A stretch of 64,000 nucleotides of DNA from Anaerolineales bacterium. GTDB lineage: Bacteria > Chloroflexota > Anaerolineae > Anaerolineales > Villigracilaceae. The notes beneath the pieces were generated by a model, which was not told where the DNA came from, did no database searches, and was given only the letters and a program-made list of their open reading frames with translations. Shown here one piece after another: positions 9,860 through 45,629 of this stretch. The translations under genes and the position numbers were made by a program. Location: assembly GCA_034434535.1 (NCBI GenBank), contig DAOTZC010000012.1, positions 510,128 through 574,127 of the forward strand. The letters run 5' to 3'. Numbering within the stretch: the first letter of the stretch is position 1; the number at the start of each line of letters is the position of its first letter.

Positions 9860-10002
9860 CTTTATTCCAGTGAGCTTTCAAATTTGATAGGTGGTTTGAT
9901 GATGCGTTCGTGAATGTTGATATGGGGGTGTTGGGGAGCAAAACGGATGATGAATGTTTTCTCCTCGTGATGGATAAACGTCAAAGGGAAAAGAGAGAGG
10001 CT

Positions 10003-11163: not shown

Positions 11164-11193
11164 TATCCTGCCAGGTTTTTGAGAGGACTGAAC

Positions 11194-28635: not shown

Positions 28636-30021
28636 ATGTCCACCCTCTTGATTAAACACGCCTACCTTGCCACCTTTGACGACCACCAGACCGAGATTGC
28701 GGACGGTGGTCTTTTCATTCGCGATGGCTTCATCGAACTCGTAGGGCAAAATTCTATTTTGCCCACCACCGCCGATGAAGTTCTCGACCTCTCCGGCCAC
28801 GTTGTCCTCCCTGGGCTGGTTAACACCCATCATCACTTTTATCAGACCCTCACCCGCAACCTGCCTGCCGCGCAGGATGCCAACCTGTTCAACTGGCTCA
28901 AAACCCTTTACCCCATTTGGGCGCGGCTCCAGCCGGAGGATATTTTCACCTCCGCCCAAACCGCCCTGGCCGAACTGGCGCTCAGCGGCTGCACCACCGC
29001 TTCTGACCATCTCTACCTGTTCCCAAACGGTTCAAAGTTAGATGATGAAATCGAAGCCGGACTCTCGCTCGGAGTCCGACTTCACGCCTCGAGAGGCTCG
29101 ATGTCCCTGGGAGAATCGCAGGGCGGCCTCCCCCCTGACTCTGTGACCGACAACGAGGAACATATCCTGGCGGATAGCGAGCGCGTCATTCAGCGTTACC
29201 ATGACCCCAAACCGGGTTCAATGACCCAAATCGTCCTGGCGCCCTGTTCGCCATTTTCAGTGACAGGCAACCTGATGAAACAATCTGCTGCGCTGGCGCG
29301 TCAATACGGCGTTCACCTGCACACCCACCTGGCCGAAACCGAGGACGAGGAGCAGTTCTGCCTCCAGAAATTTGGCTACCGCCCGGTCGGGTATATGCAG
29401 TCTCTTAATTGGGTCGGCGGCGATGTCTGGTTCGCGCACTCGGTCTATGTCAACGCCGAAGAAATCAACGTTTTTGCGCGGCACCATTGCGGCGTGGCGC
29501 ACTGTCCCACCTCCAACATGCGCCTGGCCTCCGGCATCGCCCCCATTCGAGAGTATCTTGCCGCCGGGGTCAATGTCGGCCTGGGCGTAGATGGCTCCGC
29601 CAGCAATGACGGCTCGCACCTGCTGGCCGAAGTGCGCCAGGCCATGCTGCTCTCCCGTGTGCGCGAAGGTGTGACCGGCTTCTCGCTTTCCAATGACCCG
29701 ACGCGAAAACTCATGACTGCCCGCCAGGCCTTGTGGCTCGGCACGCGCGGCGGCGCGGCGGTGTTGGGACGCAGCGATATTGGCAGCCTCGAGGCGGGCA
29801 AATGCGCCGACTTTTTTGCCATTAACCTGAATACGCTCGACCTGGCGGGCGGCGCGGTTCACGACCCGCTGGCAGCGGTGGTCTTTTGCCAGCCGCGCCG
29901 GGTGGATTACACCGTGGTCGGTGGGAAATTTGTCGTCAGGGAGGGCCAACTCGTCACCGTGGATGAACGCGAACTGACCGCCCGCCATAACCGGGCCGCG
30001 AAACGGCTGATTTCCGGGTAG
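28636..30021 (+). CDS. amidohydrolase-superfamily deaminase (8-oxoguanine deaminase / chlorohydrolase-like)
   Basis: LPGLVNTHHHFYQTLTR metal-binding HxH segment, later HLAET and GVDGSASND, which are typical of this subgroup. Confidence 0.7.
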   Translation: MSTLLIKHAYLATFDDHQTEIADGGLFIRDGFIELVGQNSILPTTADEVLDLSGHVVLPGLVNTHHHFYQTLTRNLPAAQDANLFNWLKTLYPIWARLQPEDIFTSAQTALAELALSGCTTASDHLYLFPNGSKLDDEIEAGLSLGVRLHASRGSMSLGESQGGLPPDSVTDNEEHILADSERVIQRYHDPKPGSMTQIVLAPCSPFSVTGNLMKQSAALARQYGVHLHTHLAETEDEEQFCLQKFGYRPVGYMQSLNWVGGDVWFAHSVYVNAEEINVFARHHCGVAHCPTSNMRLASGIAPIREYLAAGVNVGLGVDGSASNDGSHLLAEVRQAMLLSRVREGVTGFSLSNDPTRKLMTARQALWLGTRGGAAVLGRSDIGSLEAGKCADFFAINLNTLDLAGGAVHDPLAAVVFCQPRRVDYTVVGGKFVVREGQLVTVDERELTARHNRAAKRLISG

Positions 30022-30056
30022 TTTCTCTCTATTCCATTCCGCGAAAGGAGTATGCC

Positions 30057-30401
30057 ATGTACGTCAAGGATTATCTCGAAGTTCCTGCCGAAGCGGCAGG
30101 CGCCGATGGCCTGACCGCCCGCTGGGTAATCAATGCGACACAGGGAGCAACGAATTTCGCCATGTGCATTTACGAACTCCAGCCCGGCAAAACCACGCCC
30201 TTTCACCAGCACGACCATGAACACGAATTGTTTGTTTTTGAAGGCTGCGGCCAGTTGACCACCCCGCATGGTGTGGTCGAAATTCGCCCTGGCGCGGCGA
30301 TTTTCATCCCCTCCGGCGAGCAACATCAGTTCAGCAACACCGGCAACTCGCTTTTGCGCATGGTCGGGGTGATGAATTTTGCCCCCGTCTTGCCAAAATA
30401 A
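30057..30401 (+). CDS. cupin domain protein
   Basis: Cupin motif 1 PFHQHDHEHELFVFEG and motif 2 GAAIFIPSGEQHQFSN. Confidence 0.75.
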   Translation: MYVKDYLEVPAEAAGADGLTARWVINATQGATNFAMCIYELQPGKTTPFHQHDHEHELFVFEGCGQLTTPHGVVEIRPGAAIFIPSGEQHQFSNTGNSLLRMVGVMNFAPVLPK

Positions 30402-30510
30402 GCATGATTGGCAAACAGCCAGACGCAGGCAAGAGCGGATGAACGCGGAGAAACCTGCCGCTTTTCGACCATCGCAAATCAAAAATCTGCAATCCTGAAT
30501 TCGGAGCCTC

Positions 30511-32295
30511 ATGCTTTCTCAAACCCTCGTCCACGTAGCCATGGGCCGCGCGCCCGCCGACCTGGTCATCAAAAACGGAAAGTGGGTTTGCGTCCAGACC
30601 GGGGAAATCATTCCGCATACCGATATTGCCATTGTGGATGGGCATATTGCCTATGTAGGCGAAAACGCCGCGCATACGATAGGTCCGCGCACGCGCATCA
30701 TCGAATCCGAAGGGCGCTACCTCGTCCCCGGTTTGCTCGATGGTCACATGCACGTTGAAAGCGGCATGGTGACAGTGACGGAGTTTGTCCGCGCCGTTGC
30801 GCCGCGCGGCACGACCGGCATGTTCATTGACCCGCACGAGATTGCGAATGTCTTCGGCTTGAAAGGCGTCAAACTGATGGTGGACGAAGCCGCCGTTCAG
30901 CCGATTCACGTTTGGGTGCAAATGCCCTCCTGCGTCCCCTCCGCGCCGGGTCTGGAGACGCCCGGCGCGTCCATCAGCCCCGCCGATGTGGCTGAAGCCA
31001 TGACCTGGCCGGGCATCATCGGTCTGGGCGAGATGATGAACTTCCCCGGCGTGGTGGAATCGGATGAGAAAATGCACGCCGAAATGCACTCTACCCGTCA
31101 CGCGGGCAAGACCATCGGCGGGCATTACCCAACCCCCGACCTGGGATTGGCCTTTCACGGTTACGCGGCGGGCGGCCCGGAAGACGACCACGAAGGCACT
31201 CGCGCCGAAGACGCCATCGCCCGCGCCCGGCAGGGCATGAAGCCCATGCTGCGCTATGGTTCGGCCTGGCATGATGTGGCCGAACAGGCGAAGGCCATCA
31301 CCGAACAGGGCCTCGACCCGCGCCGCTTCATCCTCTGCACCGATGACAGCCACGCCGCCACGCTGGCTCACGAAGGCCACATGGATAGAGTCATTCGCCA
31401 CGCCATCCGCGAAGGCTTGCCGCCGATGACGGCCATTCAGATGGCGACCCTCAACACCGCCGAGCATTTTGGCCTCAGCCGCGAAATCGGTCTGATTGCT
31501 CCCGGCCGCTGGGGCGATGTGGTGCTTGTCCGCGACCTGAATGACTTCCGCGCCGACCTGGTGATTGCCAAAGGCCGGGTGATTGCTCAGGATGGACAGT
31601 GGAAGCAGGAACTTCCTGCCTATCCATACCCGGATTGGGTCAGGCACAGTGTTAAACTCAAACGCGCGTTGACTGCCGATGATTTCAAAATAAGAATTAC
31701 CAATCACCAGTCGCCAGTTACTGCGAATGTCATTGGCGTCATCGAAAACCAGGCCCCCACTCGCCACCTGCGCCTGAAACTGACCCCTGAACATGGGGAA
31801 ATCCGCTCCTCGTTTTTCACTCGTCACGAAGCCCCCGATATTGCCAAAGCCGCCCTGGTCGAGCGCCATCATGCGACTGGCGGGGTGCAGGCGGCCCTGG
31901 TGAGCGGATTTGGCCTGAAAGCCCGGTGCGCCATCGCCACCACCGTTGCGCATGATAGCCACCACATGATTGTTCTCGGCACGGATGACGATTGCATGGC
32001 GCAGGCCGCCAACCGCCTGGCCAAAACCGGCGGCGGGCAGGTGGTGGTCAGAGACGGAGAAATCATCGGCGAGGTGAGCCTGCCGATTGCCGGGTTGATG
32101 TCAAACGAACGCGCCGAAGTGGTTGCTCAAAACGCCGAAACCGTGCTGGAGGGTTTCCGCGCCTGTGGCTGCACGCTCAACAACCCCAACATGCAGCTTT
32201 CTCTGCTTGCCCTGGTCGTCATCCCCGAACTGCGGATTTCCGATAAGGGTCTGGTGGATGTAACGAAGTTCGATTTTGTGCCGGTGATTGAGTAA
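30511..32295 (+). CDS. ade: adenine deaminase
   Basis: PGLLDGHMHVESGM and VAHDSHHMIVLGTDD match the characteristic adenine deaminase segments (B. subtilis AdeC/E. coli Ade type). The length of 594 aa also fits. Confidence 0.8.
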   Translation: MLSQTLVHVAMGRAPADLVIKNGKWVCVQTGEIIPHTDIAIVDGHIAYVGENAAHTIGPRTRIIESEGRYLVPGLLDGHMHVESGMVTVTEFVRAVAPRGTTGMFIDPHEIANVFGLKGVKLMVDEAAVQPIHVWVQMPSCVPSAPGLETPGASISPADVAEAMTWPGIIGLGEMMNFPGVVESDEKMHAEMHSTRHAGKTIGGHYPTPDLGLAFHGYAAGGPEDDHEGTRAEDAIARARQGMKPMLRYGSAWHDVAEQAKAITEQGLDPRRFILCTDDSHAATLAHEGHMDRVIRHAIREGLPPMTAIQMATLNTAEHFGLSREIGLIAPGRWGDVVLVRDLNDFRADLVIAKGRVIAQDGQWKQELPAYPYPDWVRHSVKLKRALTADDFKIRITNHQSPVTANVIGVIENQAPTRHLRLKLTPEHGEIRSSFFTRHEAPDIAKAALVERHHATGGVQAALVSGFGLKARCAIATTVAHDSHHMIVLGTDDDCMAQAANRLAKTGGGQVVVRDGEIIGEVSLPIAGLMSNERAEVVAQNAETVLEGFRACGCTLNNPNMQLSLLALVVIPELRISDKGLVDVTKFDFVPVIE

Positions 32296-32359
32296 TTCTT
32301 GATTCCATCATTTGCTCATTGATGAGATTGCTCGCTGATTACTGAAACCTGGAGTTCCC

Positions 32360-33097
32360 ATGCCCCATTTCCCTTTTCAACGCCTGCAAGCCGACCTTTC
32401 CGCGCTGATTGCCAAAATGCCCGCCGGGGCACGCCTGCCCTCCGAGCCAGACCTGGCCGCCGATTTGGGCGTCAGCCGCGCCACCCTGCGCGAAGCCATG
32501 CGCGCCTTTGAAACGCAGGGACTCATCCGCCGCCGCCAGGGGGCAGGAACTTTTGTGGTGGGCAAGCCGCCTGTCATCGAGAGCGGGCTGGAAGTGCTGG
32601 AATCCATGCTCACCCTGGCGCGCCGCTCCGGGTTGGATGTTGGCCCCGGCCCGGTGGCTGTCGAACAAATCCAGGCCGATAAGGACTGCGCGGCGGCGTT
32701 GGGCGTTGCCGAAGGAACCAGCCTGGTGCGCGTCTCGCGTACCATGCGCGCCGAATCGCGCCCGGTGGCCTATTTGATTGATACCCTGCCCGAAAACGTC
32801 TTACAGGCCGAGGAATTGACCAGCAAATTCAACGGCTCGGTGTTAGATTACCTGCTCCAGCGCGGCGACCCGCTCGTCACCAGCCGGGCCGAAATTACCG
32901 CCACCAACGCCAGCGCCGAAGTTGCCAAAATGCTCGAAATCCAGCGCGGCGATGTTTTGCTGAAACTGACGGCCAAACTCTACACTGCCAGCGGGCAGGT
33001 GGTTGATTTTTCGCACAGCTATTTTCTGCCCGGCTATTTCAAATTCCATGTTGTCCGCAAGGTGGGTGGGGGCAGTTCAGTAATCAGTAATCAGTAA
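32360..33097 (+). CDS. GntR-family transcriptional regulator, HutC/UTRA subfamily
   Basis: wHTH LPSEPDLAADLGVSRATLREAMRAFETQGLIRRRQGAGTFV plus a UTRA-like C-terminal half. The stop TAA lies inside the heptamer repeat. Confidence 0.85.
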   Translation: MPHFPFQRLQADLSALIAKMPAGARLPSEPDLAADLGVSRATLREAMRAFETQGLIRRRQGAGTFVVGKPPVIESGLEVLESMLTLARRSGLDVGPGPVAVEQIQADKDCAAALGVAEGTSLVRVSRTMRAESRPVAYLIDTLPENVLQAEELTSKFNGSVLDYLLQRGDPLVTSRAEITATNASAEVAKMLEIQRGDVLLKLTAKLYTASGQVVDFSHSYFLPGYFKFHVVRKVGGGSSVISNQ

Positions 33098-33110
33098 TCA
33101 GTAATCAGTG
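33077..33110. repeat. tandem heptanucleotide repeat (TCAGTAA)x4 plus partial copy
   Basis: Four exact copies at 33077-33104 followed by TCAGTG. This gives TAA in all three + frames and TGA in all three - frames. Confidence 0.95.
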
Positions 33111-33183
33111 TCTGGTGGCAATGCTTGAGTTACAAATTACCTCGCAAACCGCCAACTGGAAAACCGAAAAATAGGAGTCTCGT

Positions 33184-34416
33184 ATGCCAGAAAAAGTTGC
33201 AAAAATTAAGGCGCGCGTTGAACAGCACCGCGAAGAAATCATCCAGTTCATGCGCGACATCTGCGCCATCCCCAGCATCAACTCGCAAATTGGGCCGGTT
33301 GGAGAGCGCATTCAGGCCGAAATGCGCAAACTCGGCTATGACGAAGTCCGTTTTGACAAAATGGGCAATACCCTCGGGCGCATCGGCAATGGGCCGAAGG
33401 TCATCGTCTTTGACTCGCACATTGACACGGTGGACGTGGGCAACCCGGCGGAATGGGGTTGGGACCCCTTTGTTGGCAAGGTGGAAGATGGCATTTTTTA
33501 CGCGCGCGGCGCGTGCGATGAAAAAGGCTCAACGCCCGGCATGGTCTATGGACTGGCAATTGCCCGCGACCTCGGCCTGTTGGAAGGCTATACCGCCTAC
33601 TACTTCGGCAACATGGAAGAATGGTGTGATGGCATTGCCCCGAATGCGTTTGTGGAGGCCGACCCGCAGGTCAGGCCCGATTATGTCGTCATCGGCGAGC
33701 CGACCCGTATGCAGGTTTATCGTGGACACAAAGGCCGCATCGAGATGAAAATCACCGCCGAAGGCCGCTCGGCGCACGCTGCCTCGCACTATCTCGGCGA
33801 TAACGCCGTCTACAAGATGATTGCCGTCATTAACCAGATTCGCGAACTCGACCGCCGCTTCCGCTTTGGCATGGGCGGCCACCCCGAGCAGGGCAATCCC
33901 TCCATCGCCGTTACCAATGTCGAGGTGCGCACCGCCTCCCTCAACGCCGTGCCCGACCAGTTCACCATCTACATTGACCGCCGCATCACCCTCAACGAGC
34001 CGCGTGAGCATGTTCTGGCGCAAACGCGCGGCCTGATTGCCGATTACTTGCAGGATGAAATCAAGGTCGAGGAACTTTACTACAACGAACCATCCTACAC
34101 CGGCTTTGTTTTTCCCGTTTCCAAATATTACCCCGCCTGGCTGTTGGATGAATCCCATCACTTCGTCCGCGCCGGACAGCGCGCCATCGAAGCCCTGTGG
34201 GGCGAAGCGCGCAAAACCGGCACCTGGGACTTCTCGACCAACGGCACTTACTGGGCTGGCAAAGCGGGCATCCCCTCCATTGGCTTTGGCCCCGGCAACG
34301 AAAAAACCGCCCACACCAACCACGAATGCGTCCCGCTCGAAGATGTTGTCCAGGCCACTGCCTTCTACGCGCTTCTGCCTAAAATGCTGGCCGAAGAAGT
34401 GCATGTGAACGAGTAG
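33184..34416 (+). CDS. YgeY-like M20-family hydrolase (peptidase M20/ArgE/DapE fold)
   Basis: RBS AGGAG. FMRDICAIPS, DSHIDTV, GACDEKG, MEEWCDG, IGEPT, VYRGHKGRIEM, FSTNGT, GIPSIGFGPG. By eye it is collinear with my recollection of E. coli YgeY. Confidence 0.7.
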   Translation: MPEKVAKIKARVEQHREEIIQFMRDICAIPSINSQIGPVGERIQAEMRKLGYDEVRFDKMGNTLGRIGNGPKVIVFDSHIDTVDVGNPAEWGWDPFVGKVEDGIFYARGACDEKGSTPGMVYGLAIARDLGLLEGYTAYYFGNMEEWCDGIAPNAFVEADPQVRPDYVVIGEPTRMQVYRGHKGRIEMKITAEGRSAHAASHYLGDNAVYKMIAVINQIRELDRRFRFGMGGHPEQGNPSIAVTNVEVRTASLNAVPDQFTIYIDRRITLNEPREHVLAQTRGLIADYLQDEIKVEELYYNEPSYTGFVFPVSKYYPAWLLDESHHFVRAGQRAIEALWGEARKTGTWDFSTNGTYWAGKAGIPSIGFGPGNEKTAHTNHECVPLEDVVQATAFYALLPKMLAEEVHVNE

Positions 34417-34423
34417 GGCGGAA

Positions 34424-34457
34424 GGGAAACAGGTAAACAACGAGACAGGGAAACAGG
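34424..34457 (+). repeat. direct repeat GGGAAACAGG x2 (14-nt spacer) in a purine-rich post-stop element
   Basis: GGGAAACAGG at 34424-34433 and 34448-34457, starting 8 nt after the TAG of the M20 gene. A related element follows the ftsH stop (62528-62573). Confidence 0.8.
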
Positions 34458-34512
34458 GTCACTGAAAAACAAAACCGTCATCCACGCTTTTTCTCACAAA
34501 AGGAGGCTTGTC

Positions 34513-35466
34513 ATGCGTAGCTTTGCCGGTCGTGATATTCTCTCGCTCAAGGAATTTGAGCGCAACGAGTTCTTCCGCGTTTTTGAAGTGGCCGAAACGC
34601 TGGAACCAATTGCCCGCAACCGCCGCAACGCCGAACTGCTCAAAGAGAAGACGCTGGTTGCCGCCTTCTATCAGCCATCCACCCGCACGCGGCTGGCGCA
34701 CGAGGCCGCCATGCACCGCCTGGGCGGGCATGTGGTAGGGTTTGCCGACCCCAAAATGACCCGCGCCGGTGATTTCTACCAGGAATCCATCAAAGACACC
34801 GTCAAAATGCTCGAATACTATGGCGATGTCATCGTCATGCGCCACTTCCAGCAGGGCGCGCCGCACGAGGCCGCCAAATGGGCCAGCATTCCGGTCATCA
34901 ACGGCGGCGATGGCTGGGGCGAGCATCCCACCCAGATTCTCGCCGACCTGTACACCGTCCTGCGTGAAAAAGGCCGCATTGACGGCCTCAAGTGGCTGGC
35001 GGTGGGCGATATGCGCATGAGAACCATGCACTCGCTCGGCTATGCCCTCAGCCAGTTCGACTGCCCCATCACCTTTGTTGCCCCGCCCGACATGGGCCTG
35101 ACCCCCGAATTCAAAGCCGAAATGAAGCAGCTCAGCGTCAACTTCAGCGAAAAAGAACACGTTGAGCAGGCCATCGCCGAAGCCGATGTCATCCTGGTCG
35201 AACCGGTTGTTCAGCCCGATTACACCAAAAGCCGCGATGAACGCTCCGGCAGCGTGGGCCTGACCCCGGCCAATTACAAAATCACCCGTGAACTGCTCGA
35301 AACCAAAGCCAAATCTGACGCCATCCTGCTCCATTCCCTGCCGCGCATGGACGAAGTCCCCACCGATGTGGACATCACCCGCTGGTCGCGCTACTGGCAG
35401 GAAGCCTTCAATGGCGTCGTCATGCGCATGGCGCTGCTTGCGCTGGTTTTGGGAGCAATGGAGTAG
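34513..35466 (+). CDS. aspartate-carbamoyltransferase-like transcarbamoylase, atypical paralogue
   Basis: STRTR, VMRH, EHPTQ, RMRTMHS, HSLPR and NGVVMRMALLALVLG are collinear with PyrB. The TRVQKER segment reads EPVVQPD (about 35200-35220), and the KK loop reads AGDFYQ. Confidence 0.7.
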   Translation: MRSFAGRDILSLKEFERNEFFRVFEVAETLEPIARNRRNAELLKEKTLVAAFYQPSTRTRLAHEAAMHRLGGHVVGFADPKMTRAGDFYQESIKDTVKMLEYYGDVIVMRHFQQGAPHEAAKWASIPVINGGDGWGEHPTQILADLYTVLREKGRIDGLKWLAVGDMRMRTMHSLGYALSQFDCPITFVAPPDMGLTPEFKAEMKQLSVNFSEKEHVEQAIAEADVILVEPVVQPDYTKSRDERSGSVGLTPANYKITRELLETKAKSDAILLHSLPRMDEVPTDVDITRWSRYWQEAFNGVVMRMALLALVLGAME

Positions 35467-35514
35467 TCCCTCACCCCTGGCCCTCTCCCAGAGCGGGAGA
35501 GGGGAGAAAAACGC

Positions 35515-36033
35515 ATGAAAACCATCGAAATCCGCCGTCACTCCATCCGCAACAAACCCGGCCAGGATTTATCGGAACAGGGCGTGGCGTTGGCGCGTCT
35601 GGTAGGCCTGGAAATGGGCAAGTTTCACCGGGTCATCACCAGTCCCGCGCCGCGCGCCGTGCAAACCGCCCAGGCCATGGGCTTCGAGGTCGATGCCACT
35701 GAGCCGCTCATCGCCACGTATGGGGATGATGTGGAGATGGAATGTCCCTGGCCCGCCAGTTTTTCCGATTACGCAGCCGCCTACCGGCGAGGGGGCGCGG
35801 CCTTTTCCTACGCCCGACGCCTCGCTGGTTTCTATGACCAACTGGCCGAATCTCTGCCCGAGGGTGGCTCGGCGCTGGTAGTCAATCATGGCGGCGTGGT
35901 CGAACTCAGCGCCGTTGGCTGCCTTCCCGCCGCCGATTTCGCCGCGCTGGGAGATTACATCGAATGCTGCGAGGGCATTCGCCTGAGCTGGCAGGATGGC
36001 CAGTTTATCGATTTGCAAGTCTTACGCGTGTGA
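35515..36033 (+). CDS. histidine phosphatase (phosphoglycerate-mutase-like) family protein
   Basis: IRRHS (RHG-type motif), ITSPAPRAVQTA, VVNHGGVVE. Confidence 0.7.
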   Translation: MKTIEIRRHSIRNKPGQDLSEQGVALARLVGLEMGKFHRVITSPAPRAVQTAQAMGFEVDATEPLIATYGDDVEMECPWPASFSDYAAAYRRGGAAFSYARRLAGFYDQLAESLPEGGSALVVNHGGVVELSAVGCLPAADFAALGDYIECCEGIRLSWQDGQFIDLQVLRV

Positions 36034-36080
36034 CCCTCACACCTGATACTTGACAACTCACACAAAAGGAGTATTTCAAT

Positions 36081-37070
36081 ATGCAAACCAACTTCCGTGG
36101 TCGTGATTTTATCGGCGACCTCGACTTCACCAAAGAAGAAGTCGAAACCGTTCTCGATGTGGCCTGGGACCTGAAGCGCAAGCGCGCTCTCGGCGAACCG
36201 CACCCCTACCTGCGCGATAAAGTCCTCGCCATGTTGTTCTTTTTCTCCTCCACCCGCACGCGCGGCTCGTTCGAGGCTGGCATGGCGCAGTTGGGCGGCC
36301 ATGCGGCCTTCATTGACAGCAACACCACCCAAATTGCGCACGGCGATACCCCGGTCGAAATTGGCGAAATCTTTGGCCGCTATTTTGACGGCATCGCCAT
36401 CCGTCACTGCGACTTTGGCGATGGCAACAAGTACCTGAACGATGTTGCCAAAAACAGCCGCGCCCCCGTTCTGAACATGCAGTGCGACATCTATCATCCC
36501 TTCCAGTGCCTGGCCGACCTGATGACCATCATAGAAAAGAAAGGCCGCGACCTGCGCAAAAAGAAAATCGTTGTCTCGTGGGCCTATGCCGCCTCGTACC
36601 TCAAGCCCATTTCCGTGCCGCAGTCGCTCATCCTGCAAATGCCGCGCTTTGGCATGGATGTCACCCTGGCCTACCCGCCCGGCTTCCACCTTATGCCCGA
36701 GATTGTGGAACAGGCCAAAGAACAGGCCAGGATTGCCGGAACTGCCTTTGAAATCATCGAAGACCCCGACGGCATGACCGAAGCCTGCAAAGATGCCGAT
36801 GTCATCTACGCCAAGAGTTGGGGTCCGCTGCTGACCACCAATGACAAGGTGGAAGGCAAGAAACTGCAGGATTCCTTCAAAAACTGGCTGATGGATGACG
36901 ACAAACTGAAAGTTGCCAAACCCGATGCCATCTACATGCACCCCCTGCCCGCCGACCGCGATATTGAAGTCACCAGCGCCGTGCTGGATGGCCCGCACTC
37001 GGTGGTCTTTGACGAAGCCGAAAACCGCCTGCACGCTCAAAAAGCCGTCATGGCGCTGACGATGTCTTAG
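36081..37070 (+). CDS. YgeW-like (knotted-type) carbamoyltransferase
   Basis: STRTR, QIAHGDT, NMQCDIYHPFQCLADL, KKIVVSWAYAASYLKPISVPQS, RFGMDVTLAYPPGF, DADVIYAKSWGP and YMHPLPAD match my recollection of E. coli YgeW segment by segment. The canonical OTCase DxxxSMG motif is absent. Confidence 0.65.
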   Translation: MQTNFRGRDFIGDLDFTKEEVETVLDVAWDLKRKRALGEPHPYLRDKVLAMLFFFSSTRTRGSFEAGMAQLGGHAAFIDSNTTQIAHGDTPVEIGEIFGRYFDGIAIRHCDFGDGNKYLNDVAKNSRAPVLNMQCDIYHPFQCLADLMTIIEKKGRDLRKKKIVVSWAYAASYLKPISVPQSLILQMPRFGMDVTLAYPPGFHLMPEIVEQAKEQARIAGTAFEIIEDPDGMTEACKDADVIYAKSWGPLLTTNDKVEGKKLQDSFKNWLMDDDKLKVAKPDAIYMHPLPADRDIEVTSAVLDGPHSVVFDEAENRLHAQKAVMALTMS

Positions 37071-37100
37071 CGCGGAATTCATTCCACCGCCTGAGCGCAG

Positions 37101-37135
37101 AAGGTGACCGTTACCCGTCAGGAGACGGTCACCTT
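37101..37135 (+). terminator. stem-loop after the transcarbamoylase gene (weak terminator or operator)
   Basis: AAGGTGACCG (37101-37110) pairs with CGGTCACCTT (37126-37135), with a 15-nt loop and no clear T-tract. A related GTTACCGGTCAC lies 15 nt downstream. Confidence 0.3.
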
Positions 37136-37205
37136 TAGGTAAAAATTGATGTTACCGGTCACATTAAATCGAGTAAAATAGCGCTATCCAAATCGCTATT
37201 CGGAG

Positions 37206-38624
37206 ATGAAACCCATGACCATTTCTGCCCTGCAAGAAGAACGTGTTCCGCTTGCCAGCCGCATCTGGATTTCGCTGGCCGATGCTTCGGTTGCCATCCT
37301 GCAATCTCTGGTGGCTGCCGGGGCGCTAACCTATTACTTCGTTAACCTGCGCGGCCTCTCGACCTATTACACCGGCATTGTCTGGTTGCTTTTTGGCATC
37401 TGGAATGCGGTTAACGACCCGCTCTTTGGCTACATCAGCGACCGGACAAAGAGCAATCTTGGGCGGCGCATTCCTTACATCCGCTTTGGGACACCGATTT
37501 TCGTGCTGGGCTTTATCCTCTTCTGGTTAGATGTGCCGGGCGTCAACTCTCAGTTTGGCTTGTTTGTTCAAATGTTGTTGGCGCTCTTCATTTACGATGC
37601 GCTTTATACGGCCATTGCCACCAGCCTGTACATCATGCCCTATGAGGTTGCTATCTCGAACAAAGCGCGCTCCAGTATTTTCGTTTGGAAAATTATCTTT
37701 ATGGTATTTACCATTGTCGTTCCGGTTGCCATCGAAGGCACCATCAAGCCAGAAGTGGGCGACCTGGCCGGAATCAGTTTTTTTCGCTGGTTTATGATTC
37801 TGTTTTCGATTGGGATGGGCTTGATTATCTATTTCAGCACGTTTTTCTATAAAGAGAAACACTACACTCAGGAAGATGAACAGCCGGGCTTTTTCAGCGC
37901 CCTGTTCCAATGCTTCCGCAACCGCTCCTTTGTCATTTTCGAAGTCATCAGTTTCACGATTATTTTTGTGCAGACTTCGCTTATGCAGGGTCTGTGGTAC
38001 TACTTCGACGAAATTGATGTGACTCGCGTCCCGCTCTATGTTGCTTTGGCGGCTGGTATTATCGGCGGCGTCTTTCTGTGGATTAATCGCCGTGAACCAT
38101 GGGGAGTCAAACTTAGCACGCGTCTCTTCAGCCTGGCCTTTGCGCTTGGCTGTTTTCTCATCGTTTTGCTCGGCAAAAACACGGTAGCGGCCACTCTCGC
38201 CTTTTTCCTGTTTGGGATTGGTTTTGCCGGCGGCATGTACCTGATTCCACTGATGAACGGTGACGTGGTTGACATGGATGAACATCGTACCGGTTTGCGC
38301 CGCGAAGGGATGTATGCCGGGGTCAATAGCTTTATCACCAAACCAGCCATCAGCCTGGCCCAGTGGGTTTTGCTGACCCTGATGACGGCCTGGGGGTATG
38401 ACCAAACGTTGGGCAAAGGACTGCAATCGGCCAGCGCCGAAACCGGGATTTTACTCGGCTGGGCGCTGGTGCCGGGCATCTTGCTGTTCGTTTCCTTCCT
38501 GGTTCTTCATTGGTACCCGCTCGACGGCTCTGAATGGCTCGGCATCAAGGCCAAACTGGCTGAAATCCATAAAGAGAAAGAGCGAAAATACCTCGAATCG
38601 AAAGGGTATAAAATGGTGGATTAG
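37206..38624 (+). CDS. GPH-family (glycoside-pentoside-hexuronide:cation symporter) MFS transporter
   Basis: 12 TMs. The DRTKSNLGRRIPYI loop is typical of MelB/GPH transporters. Confidence 0.8.
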   Translation: MKPMTISALQEERVPLASRIWISLADASVAILQSLVAAGALTYYFVNLRGLSTYYTGIVWLLFGIWNAVNDPLFGYISDRTKSNLGRRIPYIRFGTPIFVLGFILFWLDVPGVNSQFGLFVQMLLALFIYDALYTAIATSLYIMPYEVAISNKARSSIFVWKIIFMVFTIVVPVAIEGTIKPEVGDLAGISFFRWFMILFSIGMGLIIYFSTFFYKEKHYTQEDEQPGFFSALFQCFRNRSFVIFEVISFTIIFVQTSLMQGLWYYFDEIDVTRVPLYVALAAGIIGGVFLWINRREPWGVKLSTRLFSLAFALGCFLIVLLGKNTVAATLAFFLFGIGFAGGMYLIPLMNGDVVDMDEHRTGLRREGMYAGVNSFITKPAISLAQWVLLTLMTAWGYDQTLGKGLQSASAETGILLGWALVPGILLFVSFLVLHWYPLDGSEWLGIKAKLAEIHKEKERKYLESKGYKMVD

Positions 38625-38667
38625 CGCCAAAAAAATCGAGCGGCTTGCCGCTCGATTTTTTTGGCGC
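38624..38667. terminator. bidirectional rho-independent terminator
   Basis: Perfect 20-bp inverted repeat GCGCCAAAAAAATCGAGCGG / CCGCTCGATTTTTTTGGCGC with loop CTTG. It has an A7 run on one side and a T7 run on the other. Confidence 0.85.
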
Positions 38668-38725
38668 ATCTGAATTCGCGATATAATCTTTCTGCTTTGG
38701 AATTTTTTATTGCCGAAAGGGAATT

Positions 38726-39211
38726 ATGCCGCATCGAAAACTTAACCTTGACCAGTTGGATTACGCCATCATCCAGGCTCTCCACGCTGACGCGCGCATG
38801 GCCGCCTCTGCGATTGCTCGTCAGACCGGCACCAATGAGCGCACCGTGCGCAAGCGCATCGACCGGCTGGTTGAGGATGGCGTTATTCGTTTGACTGCCA
38901 TCCTCAACCCGCTGGCTTTTGGCTATGTCACCGCTGCCGACATCTTGCTCGATGCTGACCCGGCCCACGAGGCGGAAATATTGCAAACGCTGATGTCGAT
39001 GCCTGAAATCACCTATCTTGCTTTTGGGCAGGGCAATACTGAAATGTCCATTGAAGCCCGCTTCAAAGATAACGATGCCTTGCGTGAATTCATTCGTCAT
39101 ACCCTGCCGACCATCCCTGGTCTGACGGTGACCCGCTATGCGCTTGTCCCACGCATCTTGCGAAACATCGATGAGTGGCTGCCACCCAGGGCCGATTTTG
39201 GGCTGGAATAA
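38726..39211 (+). CDS. Lrp/AsnC-family transcriptional regulator
   Basis: LDYAIIQALHADARMAASAIARQTGTNERTVRKRIDRLVEDGVI (HTH_AsnC) plus a RAM-like C-terminal half. Confidence 0.85.
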   Translation: MPHRKLNLDQLDYAIIQALHADARMAASAIARQTGTNERTVRKRIDRLVEDGVIRLTAILNPLAFGYVTAADILLDADPAHEAEILQTLMSMPEITYLAFGQGNTEMSIEARFKDNDALREFIRHTLPTIPGLTVTRYALVPRILRNIDEWLPPRADFGLE

Positions 39212-39237
39212 CGCCAGGAAACTTTTTAAGAGATTGC

Positions 39238-39792
39238 ATGAAACCCTGGAAGACTCTTTCTCGTCAATTGGTTCTGGACTTTAGCCGCTTTCTTTCCGTG
39301 GAAAGTCACACGGTCGAATTGCCCGATGGACAGGTCATCGAAAACTGGCCCTGGGTCATCATTCCTGAATTTGTGGATGTGCTGCCTGTGTTGGAAGATG
39401 GCCGCATTTTGTGTATGCGCCAGTTCAAATATGGCGTGGGCGAAGTTTCACTCTCCACCATGGGCGGCATGATTGACGCTGGGGAGACGCCTGAGCAGGC
39501 TGCCCGCCGCGAAATGCTCGAGGAGATGGGGTGCGAGGCGCGCGAGATGATTTTCCTGGGGAAATACGCCGTCGATGCCAACCGCCGTTGTGGCACGGCG
39601 TACTTGTTTCTGGCGCTGGATGCCCGCCAGGTGGCTGAACCCAACTCTGGTGACCTGGAAGAGCAGGAAATTATTCCCCTGACCCGTGAGGAGGTTCGCC
39701 AATCGATGTTGAATGGCGAGTTCAAGATGCTCTCGTGGACGACCACTGTTGGGTTGGGGTTGGCCTGGCTTGACCGAAATATCCCCCAATAG
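39238..39792 (+). CDS. NUDIX hydrolase
   Basis: Start set at ATG 39238 (after the Lrp stop at 39211). Nudix box GGMIDAGETPEQAARREMLEEMG. Confidence 0.8.
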   Translation: MKPWKTLSRQLVLDFSRFLSVESHTVELPDGQVIENWPWVIIPEFVDVLPVLEDGRILCMRQFKYGVGEVSLSTMGGMIDAGETPEQAARREMLEEMGCEAREMIFLGKYAVDANRRCGTAYLFLALDARQVAEPNSGDLEEQEIIPLTREEVRQSMLNGEFKMLSWTTTVGLGLAWLDRNIPQ

Positions 39793-39871: not shown

Positions 39872-41008
39872 TTATGGATATGTAGATATTGTTGCCGTTG
39901 CGGTTGGTGTTGGCGTTACTGTGGGAGGCGGCGTGACCGACGGTTGGACAGTGGGCGTAAAGGTTGCGCCTGGTACCACGATGCGCGACGTGAAACTTGG
40001 CCCAAACAGCGTGCCGGTGTCGGTCATCAGACGCCAGGTGCTGGTATAGGTGCCAGGCGCTGTGGGGGCGGTGAAGTCCAGGTAGTATTCGATGGTGCCG
40101 TTTGTTTTGATGGTTCCCCGACGCAATCGGTTGGTCGTATTATCCCGCAAAATGTCACCGCTGATGTACACGAACCTGAAATCGCTGTTCCATTCGCAAG
40201 TGCCGGTATTCTTGATGACCCAGGTCTTGCGGAAGGTATCGCCCGCTTTTATATTCACGCCGTCCTGTGGTGATGCGCTCACCAGCATGGCGTTATAGCA
40301 CCCAACTGCGCCAAAAGTCGCTGTGGGGGAGGGGAGAACGGTGCCCGTGCCGGGTGTAACCGGCGTGCCTGCTACCACGATTTGTACATAAACTAAACCG
40401 CCAAAAGCCTGACCGGTGTCGGTAGAAAGCGTCCAATAGCCAACATAGGTTTTAGAGGTCGAGGGCGCAGTCAGCGTCACTGAGATATCTGCTGTTGCGC
40501 CTGGGTTGACGGTCTGATTGATGGGGGTCGATACGCCGCCCATCGCATCGCCTCGTACGAAAGTCAGTTTGTAATTCGTGTTCCAGGCGCAGGTGCCTGT
40601 GTTTTGCACCTTCCAGGTTTTGGTGAAGGTCGTTCCTGGGGCAATTTGCTGGTTGTCGGGGATGGTGACATCAGCAACATATGCCGAATTGTTGCATCCT
40701 ACCGCGCCTGCCCCACCCGTGCTACCGCCCGAAATGGGCGGAAGGGCGGTGGCAGCCGGGGTATTTGTGACTCCGAGCGTAGGGGTGATGGTCACCGTTT
40801 CAGTCGGAGAGGGGGTAAGCGTAGGACTGGGTTGGGCAGCGGCAGTGCCAGTCAGTTGGGCTTCTACCGTTTGGGCAGCCGAAGTATAAACTGCCTCGAT
40901 GCCGATTTCTGTAGGGGTTGGTTGGCTGTTTGCTGTGTTGCACGCAGAAAGCGCCAGGGCGCTTATCATCAGGGTCAGGAAAATTTTGATATGTGGTTTG
41001 TCTGCCAT
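39872..41008 (-). CDS. secreted lipoprotein with two tandem NBR1-like Ig-fold domains and Pro/Thr linkers
   Basis: ATG 41008 with RBS GGAGG. Lipobox LALSA-C. Two repeats each carry C...W(K/V)(V/I)xNTGTC(A/E)WN and a later Y(V/T)xxW(T/R)L motif, as in N_BRCA1_IG-type domains. Confidence 0.6.
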   Translation of the reverse strand: MADKPHIKIFLTLMISALALSACNTANSQPTPTEIGIEAVYTSAAQTVEAQLTGTAAAQPSPTLTPSPTETVTITPTLGVTNTPAATALPPISGGSTGGAGAVGCNNSAYVADVTIPDNQQIAPGTTFTKTWKVQNTGTCAWNTNYKLTFVRGDAMGGVSTPINQTVNPGATADISVTLTAPSTSKTYVGYWTLSTDTGQAFGGLVYVQIVVAGTPVTPGTGTVLPSPTATFGAVGCYNAMLVSASPQDGVNIKAGDTFRKTWVIKNTGTCEWNSDFRFVYISGDILRDNTTNRLRRGTIKTNGTIEYYLDFTAPTAPGTYTSTWRLMTDTGTLFGPSFTSRIVVPGATFTPTVQPSVTPPPTVTPTPTATATISTYP

Positions 41009-41099
41009 GGAACCTCCAGATAGGTGGGTATACCATAACAAGACGAACCTGGCAAAGGAAAAGTTCCAAAAACTTATGTTTTTTTAATGTGAAATCGGT

Positions 41100-43706: not shown

Positions 43707-43808
43707 ATGGATGTTTTATCGGATAAACGCATTTCTGGATAGCCAGATACCCAGAACCGGTTGACTGGATAACCGGCAACCCAAATCATTAACACGAAGG
43801 AGATGAAT

Positions 43809-45629
43809 ATGTACGGCTGGCACGGACGACTTTTGCGCGTGGATTTGACCAACCAGAAAGTTTCCATCGAAAATATTTCCCCAAAAGTTCTAAAAGACTA
43901 TATTGGCGGGCGCGGGCTGGCGATTCGTTACCTGTATGATGAGGTTGACCCGCAAGTCGACCCTTTCGCGCCGGAGAATAAACTCATCTTCACGACCGGC
44001 CCATTAACGGCCACCACTGCTCCGACCGGCAACCGCTATATGGTCGTTACAAAATCTCCGTTGACGGGGGCGCTCGCGCATTCGAACTCGGGTGGTGATT
44101 TCCCGACCTGGATGAAGCGCACCGGTTTCGATATGTACATTTTCGAGGGTAAGGCCAAAAGCCCCGTTTATGTTTGGGTCAACGAGGACGAGGTGGAAAT
44201 TCGCCCGGCAGAGCATTTGTGGGGGAAAGAAGTGCCAGAAACGACCGATGCTCTGTTAGCAGAGACCATGCCCGAGGCGAAAGTCGCCTGCATTGGCCCG
44301 GCAGGCGAGAAACTGGTCCTGATGGCTGGTATTATGAACGATTACCATCGCGCTGCGGCCCGTTCTGGCGTGGGGGCGGTTATGGGCAGTAAGAATCTCA
44401 AGGGTGTGGTGGCGATGGGTAAGAAGAACCCGGCTTTTTATGATGACGCTGGGATGCGTGCCTTGAGCGTGGAGCTCTCGAAAGAAGTTGGCGCGGATGT
44501 TAAGAAAGGCTCGAATCTGCGCATTTATGGTACGGCTTATGTGCCGCAAGTGACCAATGCGCTTGGCATTCTGCCAACCCGAAATTTTCAGACTGGCGTT
44601 TTCGAGGGTACCGACAAAATCGATGGCGTGGCGCTTAAGAATTCGTATCTGATTACTCATAAGCCCTGTTATCGCTGCCCCATTTCGTGTGGGCGGTTGA
44701 CCGAAGTCCCCGAAGGCAAATATGCGGGGAAGGGCGAAGGGCCGGAATACGAAACCATTGCTTCGCTCGGAACGGCCTGTGGTCTCGATAACCTGGCCGG
44801 GTTGCTGAAAGCCAACTATCGCTGCAACGAACTTGGCCTGGATACCATTTCGACCGGCCTGACGATTGCCGCCGCGATGGAGATGTACGAAAAGGGCATT
44901 ATCACTGATGAGCAAACGGGCATGCCGCTGCGCTTTGGAGATGCCGATGCGGTGATTGAGATGGTCAACCGAATAGGGTATCGTCAAGGGTTTGGGGATA
45001 TCCTGGCCCAGGGCAGTTATCGGCTTGGAGAGCGTTATGACCACCCGGAAATGTCTGTTACTGCCCGCAAGCAGGAATTCCCCGGCTATGACCCGCGCGG
45101 CGCGCAGGGTATGGGCTTGCTTTACGCCACTTCGAACAAGGGCGCTTCGCATATGGAGGGCGATGTGGCCTACGAGGAAGTCTTCGGTGTGCCGGTCAAA
45201 GCCGACCCGCTCTCGACTGAGGGCAAGGCCGAACTGGTGGCCCGCTTCCAGGATGCCTTTGCGCTGATTGATTCGGGTGGCGTGTGCGTTTTCTTTGCCA
45301 TTCGCTATGCGTTTACGAAAGAGATGATGGTTTGGCCCAATCGTCTGTCGCAACTGCTCAATCTGACCACTGGCGCGAACTATACGCCTGCCGAAGCCTT
45401 GCAGGCTGCTGAGCGGGTCTACACTTTGGAGCGGATGTTCTTGCTGAAAGCCGGTTCGGGGCCAGAGCAAGATACGCTTTCGCCGCGTCTGCTTAATGAA
45501 CCACTGCCCGAAGGCCCCGCTAAAGGCCGTGTGGTTGATTTGGATAAGATGTTGCCTGAATATTATGCCTATCGCAATTGGCCGGGTGGCATTCCGGCCC
45601 CAGAGAAACTGGCGGCATTAGGTTTGTAA
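43809..45629 (+). CDS. aor: tungsten-type aldehyde:ferredoxin oxidoreductase (AOR family)
   Basis: Canonical N-terminus MYGWHGRLLRVDLT. ATG 43809 lies 6 nt after GGAG, whereas ATG 43803 abuts the RBS. [4Fe-4S] ligands CYRCPISC plus GVCVF. Confidence 0.9.
   Translation: MYGWHGRLLRVDLTNQKVSIENISPKVLKDYIGGRGLAIRYLYDEVDPQVDPFAPENKLIFTTGPLTATTAPTGNRYMVVTKSPLTGALAHSNSGGDFPTWMKRTGFDMYIFEGKAKSPVYVWVNEDEVEIRPAEHLWGKEVPETTDALLAETMPEAKVACIGPAGEKLVLMAGIMNDYHRAAARSGVGAVMGSKNLKGVVAMGKKNPAFYDDAGMRALSVELSKEVGADVKKGSNLRIYGTAYVPQVTNALGILPTRNFQTGVFEGTDKIDGVALKNSYLITHKPCYRCPISCGRLTEVPEGKYAGKGEGPEYETIASLGTACGLDNLAGLLKANYRCNELGLDTISTGLTIAAAMEMYEKGIITDEQTGMPLRFGDADAVIEMVNRIGYRQGFGDILAQGSYRLGERYDHPEMSVTARKQEFPGYDPRGAQGMGLLYATSNKGASHMEGDVAYEEVFGVPVKADPLSTEGKAELVARFQDAFALIDSGGVCVFFAIRYAFTKEMMVWPNRLSQLLNLTTGANYTPAEALQAAERVYTLERMFLLKAGSGPEQDTLSPRLLNEPLPEGPAKGRVVDLDKMLPEYYAYRNWPGGIPAPEKLAALGL

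Follow-up and report, generated by a model that had tools for sequence, protein, structure and literature searches.

We examined a 64,000-nucleotide stretch of DNA from an Anaerolineales bacterium (contig DAOTZC010000012.1, positions 510,128 to 574,127), hereafter called the window, and in particular a block of four open reading frames (ORFs) at 33184-37070. In order, these ORFs were assigned to a YgeY-family M20 amidohydrolase, an aspartate transcarbamoylase (ATCase)-like protein, a histidine-phosphatase-superfamily protein, and a second transcarbamoylase of 329 aa. All four lie on the plus strand, and each is preceded by a Shine-Dalgarno-like sequence. The block is part of a compact plus-strand gene run spanning 28636-39792, and the genes at 28636-38624 form a purine-catabolic cluster (Table 1). 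An initial annotation of this DNA had described the four ORFs, two purine deaminase genes upstream of them, and a GPH-type transporter gene downstream; all of these proved to be real, with matches to hidden Markov models and domains. The block probably encodes the final, ureide-cleaving part of the reductive (2,8-dioxopurine) route of urate breakdown, in which the ATCase-like protein would add a second phosphorolytic, ATP-yielding cleavage of a ureido group.

Table 1 Genes and features of the purine-catabolic cluster in the window
Feature	Position	Strand	Evidence and remarks
8-Oxoguanine deaminase family amidohydrolase	28636..30021	+	NF006055 661.7 bits, cut-off 532; first gene of the cluster
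114-aa cupin (HxHxxxE...H)	30057..30401	+	Cupin_2 50.9 bits; accessory
Adenine deaminase	30511..32295	+	TIGR01178 511.8 bits, cut-off 472.5; Adenine_deam_C domain
GntR/HutC-type (UTRA) regulator	32360..33097	+	GntR and UTRA domains
YgeY-family M20 amidohydrolase, 410 aa, subgroup Y1	33184..34416	+	TIGR03526 450 bits, cut-off 321.5
Pseudo-ATCase (Nocardioides type), 317 aa	34513..35466	+	OTCace_N and OTCace domains
Histidine-phosphatase-superfamily protein, 172 aa	35515..36033	+	His_Phos_1 33 bits, gathering score 21.7
Short-form YgeW-like (YTC) carbamoyltransferase, 329 aa	36081..37070	+	OTCace_N and OTCace domains
MFS_2/GPH-type transporter	37206..38624	+	PF13347 181 bits
Bidirectional intrinsic-terminator hairpin	38624..38667	.	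20-bp stem, A and U runs on the flanks, folding free energy (dG) -36.5 kcal/mol, z = -9.3

The M20 protein exceeded the cut-offs of both TIGR03526 and NF009555 (421.6 bits against the latter, cut-off 321). The next best model, DapE-ArgE, gave 166.7 bits and lay below its own cut-off, and the scores with the ArgE and DapE models ranged from 109 to 167 bits. The protein was 39% identical to E. coli YgeY over 394 aligned residues, that is, over the full length. We classify it on these matches as a member of the YgeY family, in agreement with the initial annotation, and YgeY is predicted to hydrolyse the N-carbamoyl (ureido) group of a diaminopropionate ureide. For comparison, 80 loci from Chloroflexota genomes were collected, 64 of which had enough flanking sequence and serve as the denominator below. 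A ygeY gene beside a gene for a YgeW-type transcarbamoylase and purine-catabolic genes was observed in the window and in 51 of these 64 related loci.

The 329-aa transcarbamoylase missed all NCBIfam cut-offs. It scored 188 and 197.9 bits against the YgeW models TIGR03316 and NF005538 (cut-offs 500 and 453), 258.7 and 241.8 bits against the ornithine transcarbamoylase (OTC) models (cut-offs 306 and 280.85), 226.8 bits against the acetylornithine transcarbamoylase (AOTC) model (cut-off 288), and 203.7 bits against the putrescine transcarbamoylase (PTC) model (cut-off 500). Its closest sequence match in the PDB was the Pyrococcus OTC. The protein is 35-37% identical to E. coli YgeW and 30% identical to ArgI, and it is devoid of the DxxxSMG ornithine loop, with KSWGP in its place. 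It has in common with YgeW the motif NxQCDIxHPxQ, the proline-rich loop (S/T)WAYxxSYxKPxSVPQ, RFGMDVTLA, and DADxxYxKSWxP; NMQCDIYHPFQ, SWAYAASYLKPISVPQS, and KSWGP of the 329-aa protein align with NLQCDIDHPTQ, TWAYSPSYGKPLSVPQG, and KSWAP of YgeW. Four parts of YgeW are absent from it, namely about 14 aa at the N-terminus, about 20 aa at the C-terminus, and insertions of about 11 aa in the 120s region and about 16 aa in the 240s region, and it has HPLP where YgeW has HCLP. Shi et al. (PMC4581275) described YgeW as a protein of about 390-400 aa that carries additional helices at both termini and two more in the 240s loop, and recognised knotted transcarbamoylases in sequence by a loop rich in proline and a lengthened 120s loop. 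The 329-aa protein shows both of these features, its 120s loop being 4-5 residues longer than that of ArgI. YgeW is further marked by a 3-1 trefoil knot in its C-terminal domain; for the 329-aa protein, an AlphaFold2 model built from a shallow alignment of 25 close homologues was poor, with a predicted local distance difference test score (pLDDT) of 58.9.

A scan of 1.84 billion representative proteins gave a graded series of 330-350-aa relatives of this protein. In a neighbour-joining tree of these relatives and E. coli reference sequences, the 329-aa protein fell in a 7-member clade with E. coli YgeW, and the split separating these two proteins from ArgI, PyrB, and all 23 SMG-type OTCs was recovered in 198 of 200 neighbour-joining replicates. 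Furthermore, its orthologues E8MZ16 of Anaerolinea thermophila (at least 73% identical) and A1SH60 of Nocardioides (at least 63% identical) are both labelled YTC in a published tree (PMC4016543), where their subclade has a bootstrap value of 100 and stands beside other YgeW-type proteins. These results point to a short-form member of the YgeW clade (YTC), not a YgeW equivalog. The initial annotation had equated the protein with YgeW; the clade and the substrate-site motifs agree with this, whereas the missed cut-offs and the absent helices and insertions do not allow the two to be treated as equivalogs. The knotted AOTC and succinylornithine transcarbamoylase (AOTCase and SOTCase; PMC4581275), whose substrates are N-α-acylated diamino acids, likewise have the loop rich in proline and the extended 120s loop. 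In contrast to these enzymes, the 329-aa protein misses the AOTC cut-off and lies in a catabolic context without arginine-biosynthesis genes. In the homology comparison, this protein did not fall with ordinary OTC or PTC, nor did the M20 protein fall with ArgE or DapE.

The ATCase-like protein passed the cut-off of TIGR00670 narrowly (250.3 bits, cut-off 236.95) and remained below that of NF002032 (219 bits, cut-off 263). Its carbamoyl-phosphate site is intact, with equivalents of STRTR, R105, HPTQ, and L267/P268, and the equivalent of R167 is also kept. At the aspartate-binding positions (E. coli ATCase numbering), S80 is changed to R and K84 to Y, and R229 and Q231 are replaced; the RxQ motif reads VQP or KSR depending on the alignment, and HPLP is changed to HSLP. 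The altered aspartate-site residues and HSLP were invariant across 32 orthologues. In the established structures of E. coli ATCase, K84, R229, and Q231 are ligands of the β-carboxylate and R167 is a ligand of the α-carboxylate. The loss of the former three together with the retention of R167 would therefore fit an N-carbamoyl-α-amino acid having a β substituent other than a carboxylate. Both transcarbamoylases are atypical, as had been noticed at the outset.

In 2013, Barba et al. defined the "pseudo-ATCases" (PMC4016543). They reported that A1SH59 of Nocardioides sp. JS614 is encoded beside a ygeW homologue (A1SH60), followed by xdhABC and hyuA, and left its function open. The ATCase-like protein of the window is 67% identical to A1SH59 (E = 3e-153), compared with 35% for an authentic ATCase in the same alignment. 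It carries STRTR, HPTQ, HSLP, and VQP, and the Nocardioides type is marked by STRT, HPTQ, HSLP, and VxP in place of RxQ. We classify it by these features as a Nocardioides-type pseudo-ATCase. The two families of the Nocardioides pair are both present in the window (67% and at least 63% identity), with HSLP and VxP and in a purine-catabolic neighbourhood; the window differs in phylum, in the histidine-phosphatase gene between the pair, and in the ygeY gene before it. In many relatives of the window, the two transcarbamoylase genes adjoin each other. The numbers of the pseudo-ATCase subgroups in Table 1 of that paper disagree with its text and Fig. 5. In its tree file, the marine group is labelled HPLA, Rubrobacter and C. 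ljungdahlii are labelled H[ST]LP, and Nocardioides is labelled HSLP; the label ATC_III_HSLP on A1SH59 settles the mismatch.

Another ATCase-derived protein without the RxQ aspartate motif is the ureidoglycine carbamoyltransferase (UGTCase) Rxyl_2847 of Rubrobacter xylanophilus, which is proposed to phosphorolyse a purine-derived ureide beside a carbamate kinase, in place of an amidohydrolase. However, its subgroup has H[ST]LP and Gx[SC] where the window protein has HSLP and VQP, and, unlike the window module, it belongs to an aerobic uricase and allantoinase context with allantoate as the substrate. An Rxyl_2847-type ureidoglycine carbamoyltransferase was rejected as the identity of the window protein, which has VQP instead of GxS.

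Relatives of the 329-aa protein number thousands; its 120 best matches share at least 81% identity with it, originate from metagenome-assembled genomes of Anaerolineae, and are annotated as OTC or AOTC. The genes of the related loci recur in the order 8-oxoguanine deaminase, adenine deaminase, GntR regulator, YgeY, pseudo-ATCase (optional), histidine phosphatase (optional), YTC, carbamate kinase, a 668-aa membrane protein, and a BMP-type ABC transporter. This order recurs in the 80 Chloroflexota loci and is no chance juxtaposition; it is thus widely kept and not unique to this genome, a doubt that the initial annotation had raised. The 8-oxoguanine deaminase gene lies upstream of the module in 39 of the 64 loci and the adenine deaminase gene is present in 36. 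The GntR gene directly precedes ygeY in most of them, and the GntR/UTRA gene of the window is probably the regulator of the cluster. In 54 loci, the gene immediately after that for YTC is a carbamate kinase gene, arcC (NF009007 417.5 bits, cut-off 266). The corresponding site in the window is occupied by the MFS_2/GPH transporter gene, an orthologue of which was found only in the locus L014 (87%), where it is inserted between the YTC gene and arcC. The missing arcC is a lineage feature of the window.

The YgeY orthologues form three lineages, and a pseudo-ATCase gene accompanies lineage Y1 in 16 of 17 loci, Y2 in 12 of 14, and Y3 in 0 of 26. The window locus is a mosaic: its YgeY belongs to Y1, but its deaminases, regulator, phosphatase, transporter, and AsnC-type protein are closest to those of Y3-type loci without pseudo-ATCase. 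The loci with the closest flank genes (L014, L019, L024, and L038) all have no ATC-like gene, and L024 shares with the window an AsnC gene placed after that for YTC. These findings suggest that YgeY(Y1) and the pseudo-ATCase moved into the window locus as one cassette.

The reductive urate pathway was described in two papers in 2025 (PMC12507026; bioRxiv 10.1101/2025.04.24.650524). Urate is reduced to 2,8-dioxopurine, which is reduced again and opened by SsnA and then HyuA to give 2,3-diureidopropanoate. YgeW phosphorolyses one ureido group of this compound, which yields ATP with YqeA; YgeY hydrolyses the other ureido group, and YgeX then converts diaminopropionate to pyruvate. An F420 variant was noted in Chloroflexota. 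As in the YgeW-YgeY-YqeA system of E. coli and Clostridium sporogenes (PMC12507026; bioRxiv 10.1101/2025.04.24.650524; PMC12990295), genes for a YgeY-family M20 protein and a YgeW-clade transcarbamoylase adjoin here, with purine genes alongside; most relatives of the window have carbamate kinase directly downstream, and some have xanthine dehydrogenase (XDH), YgfK, and SsnA. Unlike that system, the window has a short transcarbamoylase (329 aa) and a second, ATCase-derived one, and its further additions are the histidine phosphatase, the cupin, and the MFS_2 transporter.

A link of the module to anaerobic purine or urate catabolism had been proposed at the outset, and clusters of the relatives with XDH, YgfK, SsnA, and HyuA bear it out. 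In five Anaerolineales loci (L040, L042, L044, L055, and L068), the module is accompanied by the FAD and Mo subunits of XDH, carbamate kinase, two PALP enzymes, an alpha/beta hydrolase, and YgfK (TIGR03315 909 bits, cut-off 835), and L042 and L055 also encode SsnA (NF005540 554 bits, cut-off 444). The modules of these five loci are 76-81% (YgeY), 77-78% (pseudo-ATCase), and 82-85% (YTC) identical to that of the window. The cultured relative Anaerolinea thermophila UNI-1 has, in addition to the YTC orthologue E8MZ16, the dehydrogenase E8N002 of the UacX clade (UacX = Q181U4).

When A1SH59 was used as the query, a large family of 317-aa proteins was found in Actinomycetota. Three contexts were examined, namely a Nocardioides-like contig (L083, 91% identical to the JS614 protein), Fodinibacter luteus (L084), and Jatrophihabitans (L085). 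The orthologous pair in Actinomycetota is 69-71% (pseudo-ATCase) and 62-66% (short YTC) identical to that of the window. Each of the three loci encodes a protein resembling XdhD, with a full-length identity of 35% to E. coli XdhD, together with a YgfM-like FAD subunit, an F420-dependent LLM oxidoreductase, an SsnA-like protein, two PALP enzymes, and the two transcarbamoylases. A HyuA-like hydantoinase (39-41% identical) and a homologue of the 8-oxoguanine deaminase, 45% identical to that of the window, are present in L083 and L084 (589 bits on NF006055 for L084), and among the three loci, carbamate kinase was found in L084. No M20 or ygeY gene was found within 10 kb in L083, L084, or L085; this leaves the two transcarbamoylases of these YgeY-less urate clusters as sole candidates for cleaving the two ureido groups.

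Family membership, the changed sites for the second substrate, conserved synteny, the catabolic context, and the XDH/YgfK/SsnA/HyuA embedding in relatives are observations; from them we infer the substrate, the assignment of the enzymes to the ureido groups, and the direction of the reactions as follows. The deaminases would feed bases inward, from 8-oxoguanine to urate and from adenine to hypoxanthine, and the substrate reaching the block at 33184-37070 would be 2,3-diureidopropanoate or a close relative. First, the short YTC, acting in reverse, would phosphorolyse the side-chain (3-)ureido group to carbamoyl phosphate. The reaction would be analogous to the phosphorolysis of citrulline or N-acylcitrulline by its OTC and AOTC relatives, and it agrees with Liu et al., who assigned YgeW to the side-chain (3-)ureido group. 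The remaining α (2-)ureido group could then be hydrolysed by YgeY. Alternatively, the pseudo-ATCase could act on 3-amino-2-ureidopropanoate, or on the diureide itself, and phosphorolyse its α (2-)ureido group to form a second carbamoyl phosphate, a step that would duplicate or replace the hydrolysis by YgeY. Finally, carbamate kinase would turn each carbamoyl phosphate into ATP; in the present genome, the kinase gene would have to lie outside the window. The strongest support for two phosphorolyses is given by the YgeY-less Actinomycetota clusters and by stand-alone pseudo-ATCase-YTC-arcC units, arcC being present in 12 of the 12 Chloroflexota loci that have pseudo-ATCase and YTC without YgeY. 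We tentatively propose that the pseudo-ATCase may be a new N-α-carbamoyl-2,3-diaminopropionate (or 2,3-diureidopropanoate 2-ureido) phosphorylase, with which the short YTC would convert both ureido groups to carbamoyl phosphate.

Several points weigh against this interpretation. The 64-kb window is devoid of XdhD, YgfK/UacX/LLM, SsnA, HyuA, YgeX, and carbamate kinase. Indeed, none was found in the window by tblastn with the carbamate kinase of a relative and E. coli YqeA, YgeX, HyuA, YgfK, and XdhD, consistent with the initial annotation, which had listed diaminopropionate ammonia-lyase, hydantoinase, carbamate kinase, and XDH as missing; E. coli SsnA gave only a weak match of 24%, to the 8-oxoguanine deaminase gene. 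None of the members of a complete reductive urate cluster (XdhD/YgfM, a YgfK/UacX/LLM reductase, SsnA, HyuA, and YgeX) was thus found in the window. Moreover, no HyuA or YgeX orthologue was detected in any of the 80 Chloroflexota loci; ThrC-like and CysK-like PALP enzymes may substitute for YgeX. The two papers of 2025 conflict on which ureido group YgeW takes. YgeY and the pseudo-ATCase occur together in 28 of the 64 loci, YgeY only in 23, the pseudo-ATCase only in 12, and neither in 1 (one or both in 63), counts that are not phylogenetically independent and that reflect few evolutionary events, since the split of the YgeY lineages tracks the pseudo-ATCase. The 28 loci with both genes and the tie of Y1 to the pseudo-ATCase (16 of 17) fit a coupled pair at least as well as the alternatives, and the cassette-like arrival of both genes in the window also fits a coupled pair. 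A clean reading of the above distribution as "YgeY or pseudo-ATCase" was dropped after the three YgeY lineages were found to track the pseudo-ATCase.

Such a coupled pair would mean the same pathway with another division of labour: the short YTC would take the 2-ureido group, which Li et al. proposed for YgeW, and the pseudo-ATCase and Y1 YgeY would act as an obligate pair on the 3-ureido product albizziin or on a side product. We consider this unlikely. Li et al. reported that YgeW forms albizziin, which YgeY and YgeX convert to pyruvate, and this agrees with such a division, as do the association of Y1 YgeY with the pseudo-ATCase and the apparent joint swap of both into the window. However, the pseudo-ATCase occurs without any YgeY in twelve Chloroflexota and three Actinomycetota loci. 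Furthermore, the logic of the families, drawn from the descriptions in PMC4581275 and from general knowledge, would assign α-N-carbamoyl groups to an ATCase-derived site and side-chain ureido groups to a site derived from OTC, AOTC, or YgeW.

It is rather improbable that the module handles a different ureide, either allantoate, ureidoglycine, or oxalurate of an allantoin-type route (cf. the Rubrobacter UGTCase) or 4-ureido-5-imidazolecarboxylate of the clostridial xanthinase route. The cupin gene of the cluster would be in line with the former, as the cupin fold also serves ureidoglycine aminohydrolase; it was observed in only 3 other loci, however. The redox and ring-opening genes of the reductive pathway are absent from the window, but the orthologous modules lie among genes for XdhD, YgfK or LLM, SsnA, and HyuA. 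Ureidoglycine carbamoyltransferase activity was assigned to a related pseudo-ATCase subgroup (PMC4016543), whereas the window protein has the Nocardioides-type HSLP and VxP and is not of the UGTCase type. In addition, neither the window nor the conserved genes of the related loci gave a match to allantoinase or hydantoinase, uricase and the xanthinase-pathway genes not having been specifically searched.

Housekeeping anabolic enzymes (PyrB, an ornithine or acetylornithine transcarbamoylase, and an ArgE-like deacylase) lying near purine genes by chance are a very unlikely explanation. The narrow pass with TIGR00670 is set against the missed NF002032 cut-off and the replacement of K84, R229, and Q231, and the public annotations as ATCase, OTC, or AOTC against the absent SMG loop of OTC and the missed OTC and AOTC cut-offs. 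Although both transcarbamoylases are strongly conserved (80-96% identity), carbamate kinase adjoins them in the relatives, no arg or pyr genes lie nearby, and the published tree (PMC4016543) shows a further, distinct OTC of Nocardioides, A1SJJ1. The M20 protein reached 450 bits as YgeY compared with 109-167 bits for the ArgE and DapE models. Finally, the idea of the initial annotation that the module makes a doubly carbamoylated metabolite by means of two carbamoyl-transfer steps and a phosphatase is scarcely credible, for although two transcarbamoylases without a carbamate kinase are found in the window and diaminopropionate transcarbamoylases making β-ureidoalanine exist in antibiotic pathways (PMC4581275), arcC follows the YTC gene in 54 of the 64 relatives, the context is catabolic (deaminases, XDH, SsnA, and HyuA), and no carbamoyl-phosphate synthetase, non-ribosomal peptide synthetase, or other biosynthetic genes lie nearby.

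We favour the reading of the block as the ureide-cleaving end of the reductive urate pathway. The window is a new mosaic member of the two-transcarbamoylase variant of this pathway, which is widespread in Anaerolineae and Actinomycetota. The initial annotation had suggested an undescribed variant pathway. The pathway is not wholly undescribed: the YgeW, YgeY, and YqeA steps were solved in 2025, and the pair of transcarbamoylase genes was already reported from Nocardioides in 2013 (PMC4016543). An ATCase-like paralogue is not mentioned in either paper of 2025, and our literature searches on pseudo-ATCase and the pathway intermediates gave no other paper treating one. The new element is the specific function predicted here for the pseudo-ATCase. 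Not until 2025 was the anaerobic urate pathway solved, and the disputed step is which ureido group is cleaved by YgeW and which by YgeY; the two-transcarbamoylase variant, which in its Actinomycetota form has no YgeY, is a natural experiment in this respect. If the proposed function is correct, a new carbamoyltransferase activity would be defined, and the specificity of the pseudo-ATCase would settle the dispute over the ureido group attacked by YgeW-type enzymes. The second phosphorolysis would double the yield of ATP by substrate-level phosphorylation in the reductive urate pathway and make YgeY dispensable, and this branch would supply environmental anaerobes with as many as two ATP per urate. 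Furthermore, thousands of proteins labelled aspartate or ornithine carbamoyltransferase would be re-annotated.

Among the accessory genes, the histidine phosphatase has RRHS at residues 7-10, and its RHS and NHGG motifs were conserved in 21 orthologues. Its gene was found in 18 of the 64 loci and is absent from the XDH/SsnA-type and Actinomycetota clusters. A PDB sequence search with this 172-aa protein gave no match. The cupin gene, which was omitted from the initial annotation, lies between the two deaminase genes; its orthologues are limited to 3 of the 80 related loci, and other loci hold unrelated small ORFs at this position. The cupin was rejected as a core part of the pathway on the basis of this rarity. 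That the histidine phosphatase, the cupin, and the MFS_2 transporter serve as feeders of nucleotides or nucleosides is only a guess. In 35 of the related loci (L001-L003, L028, L050, and others), the 668-aa protein, a multi-pass membrane protein without a Pfam or NCBIfam match, is encoded between arcC and the BMP-type (nucleoside-like) ABC transporter, about 1-4 kb after arcC.

The heptamer TCAGTAA is repeated 4.7 times in perfect tandem at 33077-33109, across the stop codon of the GntR gene and the spacer between this gene and ygeY, and slippage at this repeat would alter the C-terminus of the GntR regulator. Between the YTC and MFS_2 genes, a 13-bp hairpin at 37097-37133 (dG about -25 kcal/mol, z = -3.8) without a U-run could be a partial terminator or a processing site. 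In a promoter and terminator scan, the counts were equal to those in shuffled sequence, and on folding only the terminator hairpin listed in Table 1 stood out. An Rfam scan of the whole window detected no riboswitch or other RNA family. The terminator is followed by an AsnC-type gene (38726-39211) and a Nudix ORF (39175-39792), which overlap by 37 nt with a GTG start call and are not conserved beside the module, except for AsnC in L024.

The regions on both sides are unrelated to the cluster. The downstream flank encodes a carboxypeptidase, CinA, an aldehyde:ferredoxin oxidoreductase, and ABC transporters. At 43803-45629 and 39872-41041 are encoded the aldehyde:ferredoxin oxidoreductase, which fits an anaerobe, and a protein with two N_BRCA1_IG domains. 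A 1152-aa ORF at 1101-4559 had no Pfam match. The upstream flank holds a polysaccharide-synthesis cluster on the minus strand; at 9910-13485 of the polysaccharide cluster, a Wzz chain-length domain and a GGDEF domain are combined in one protein, followed by a BcsB-like protein.

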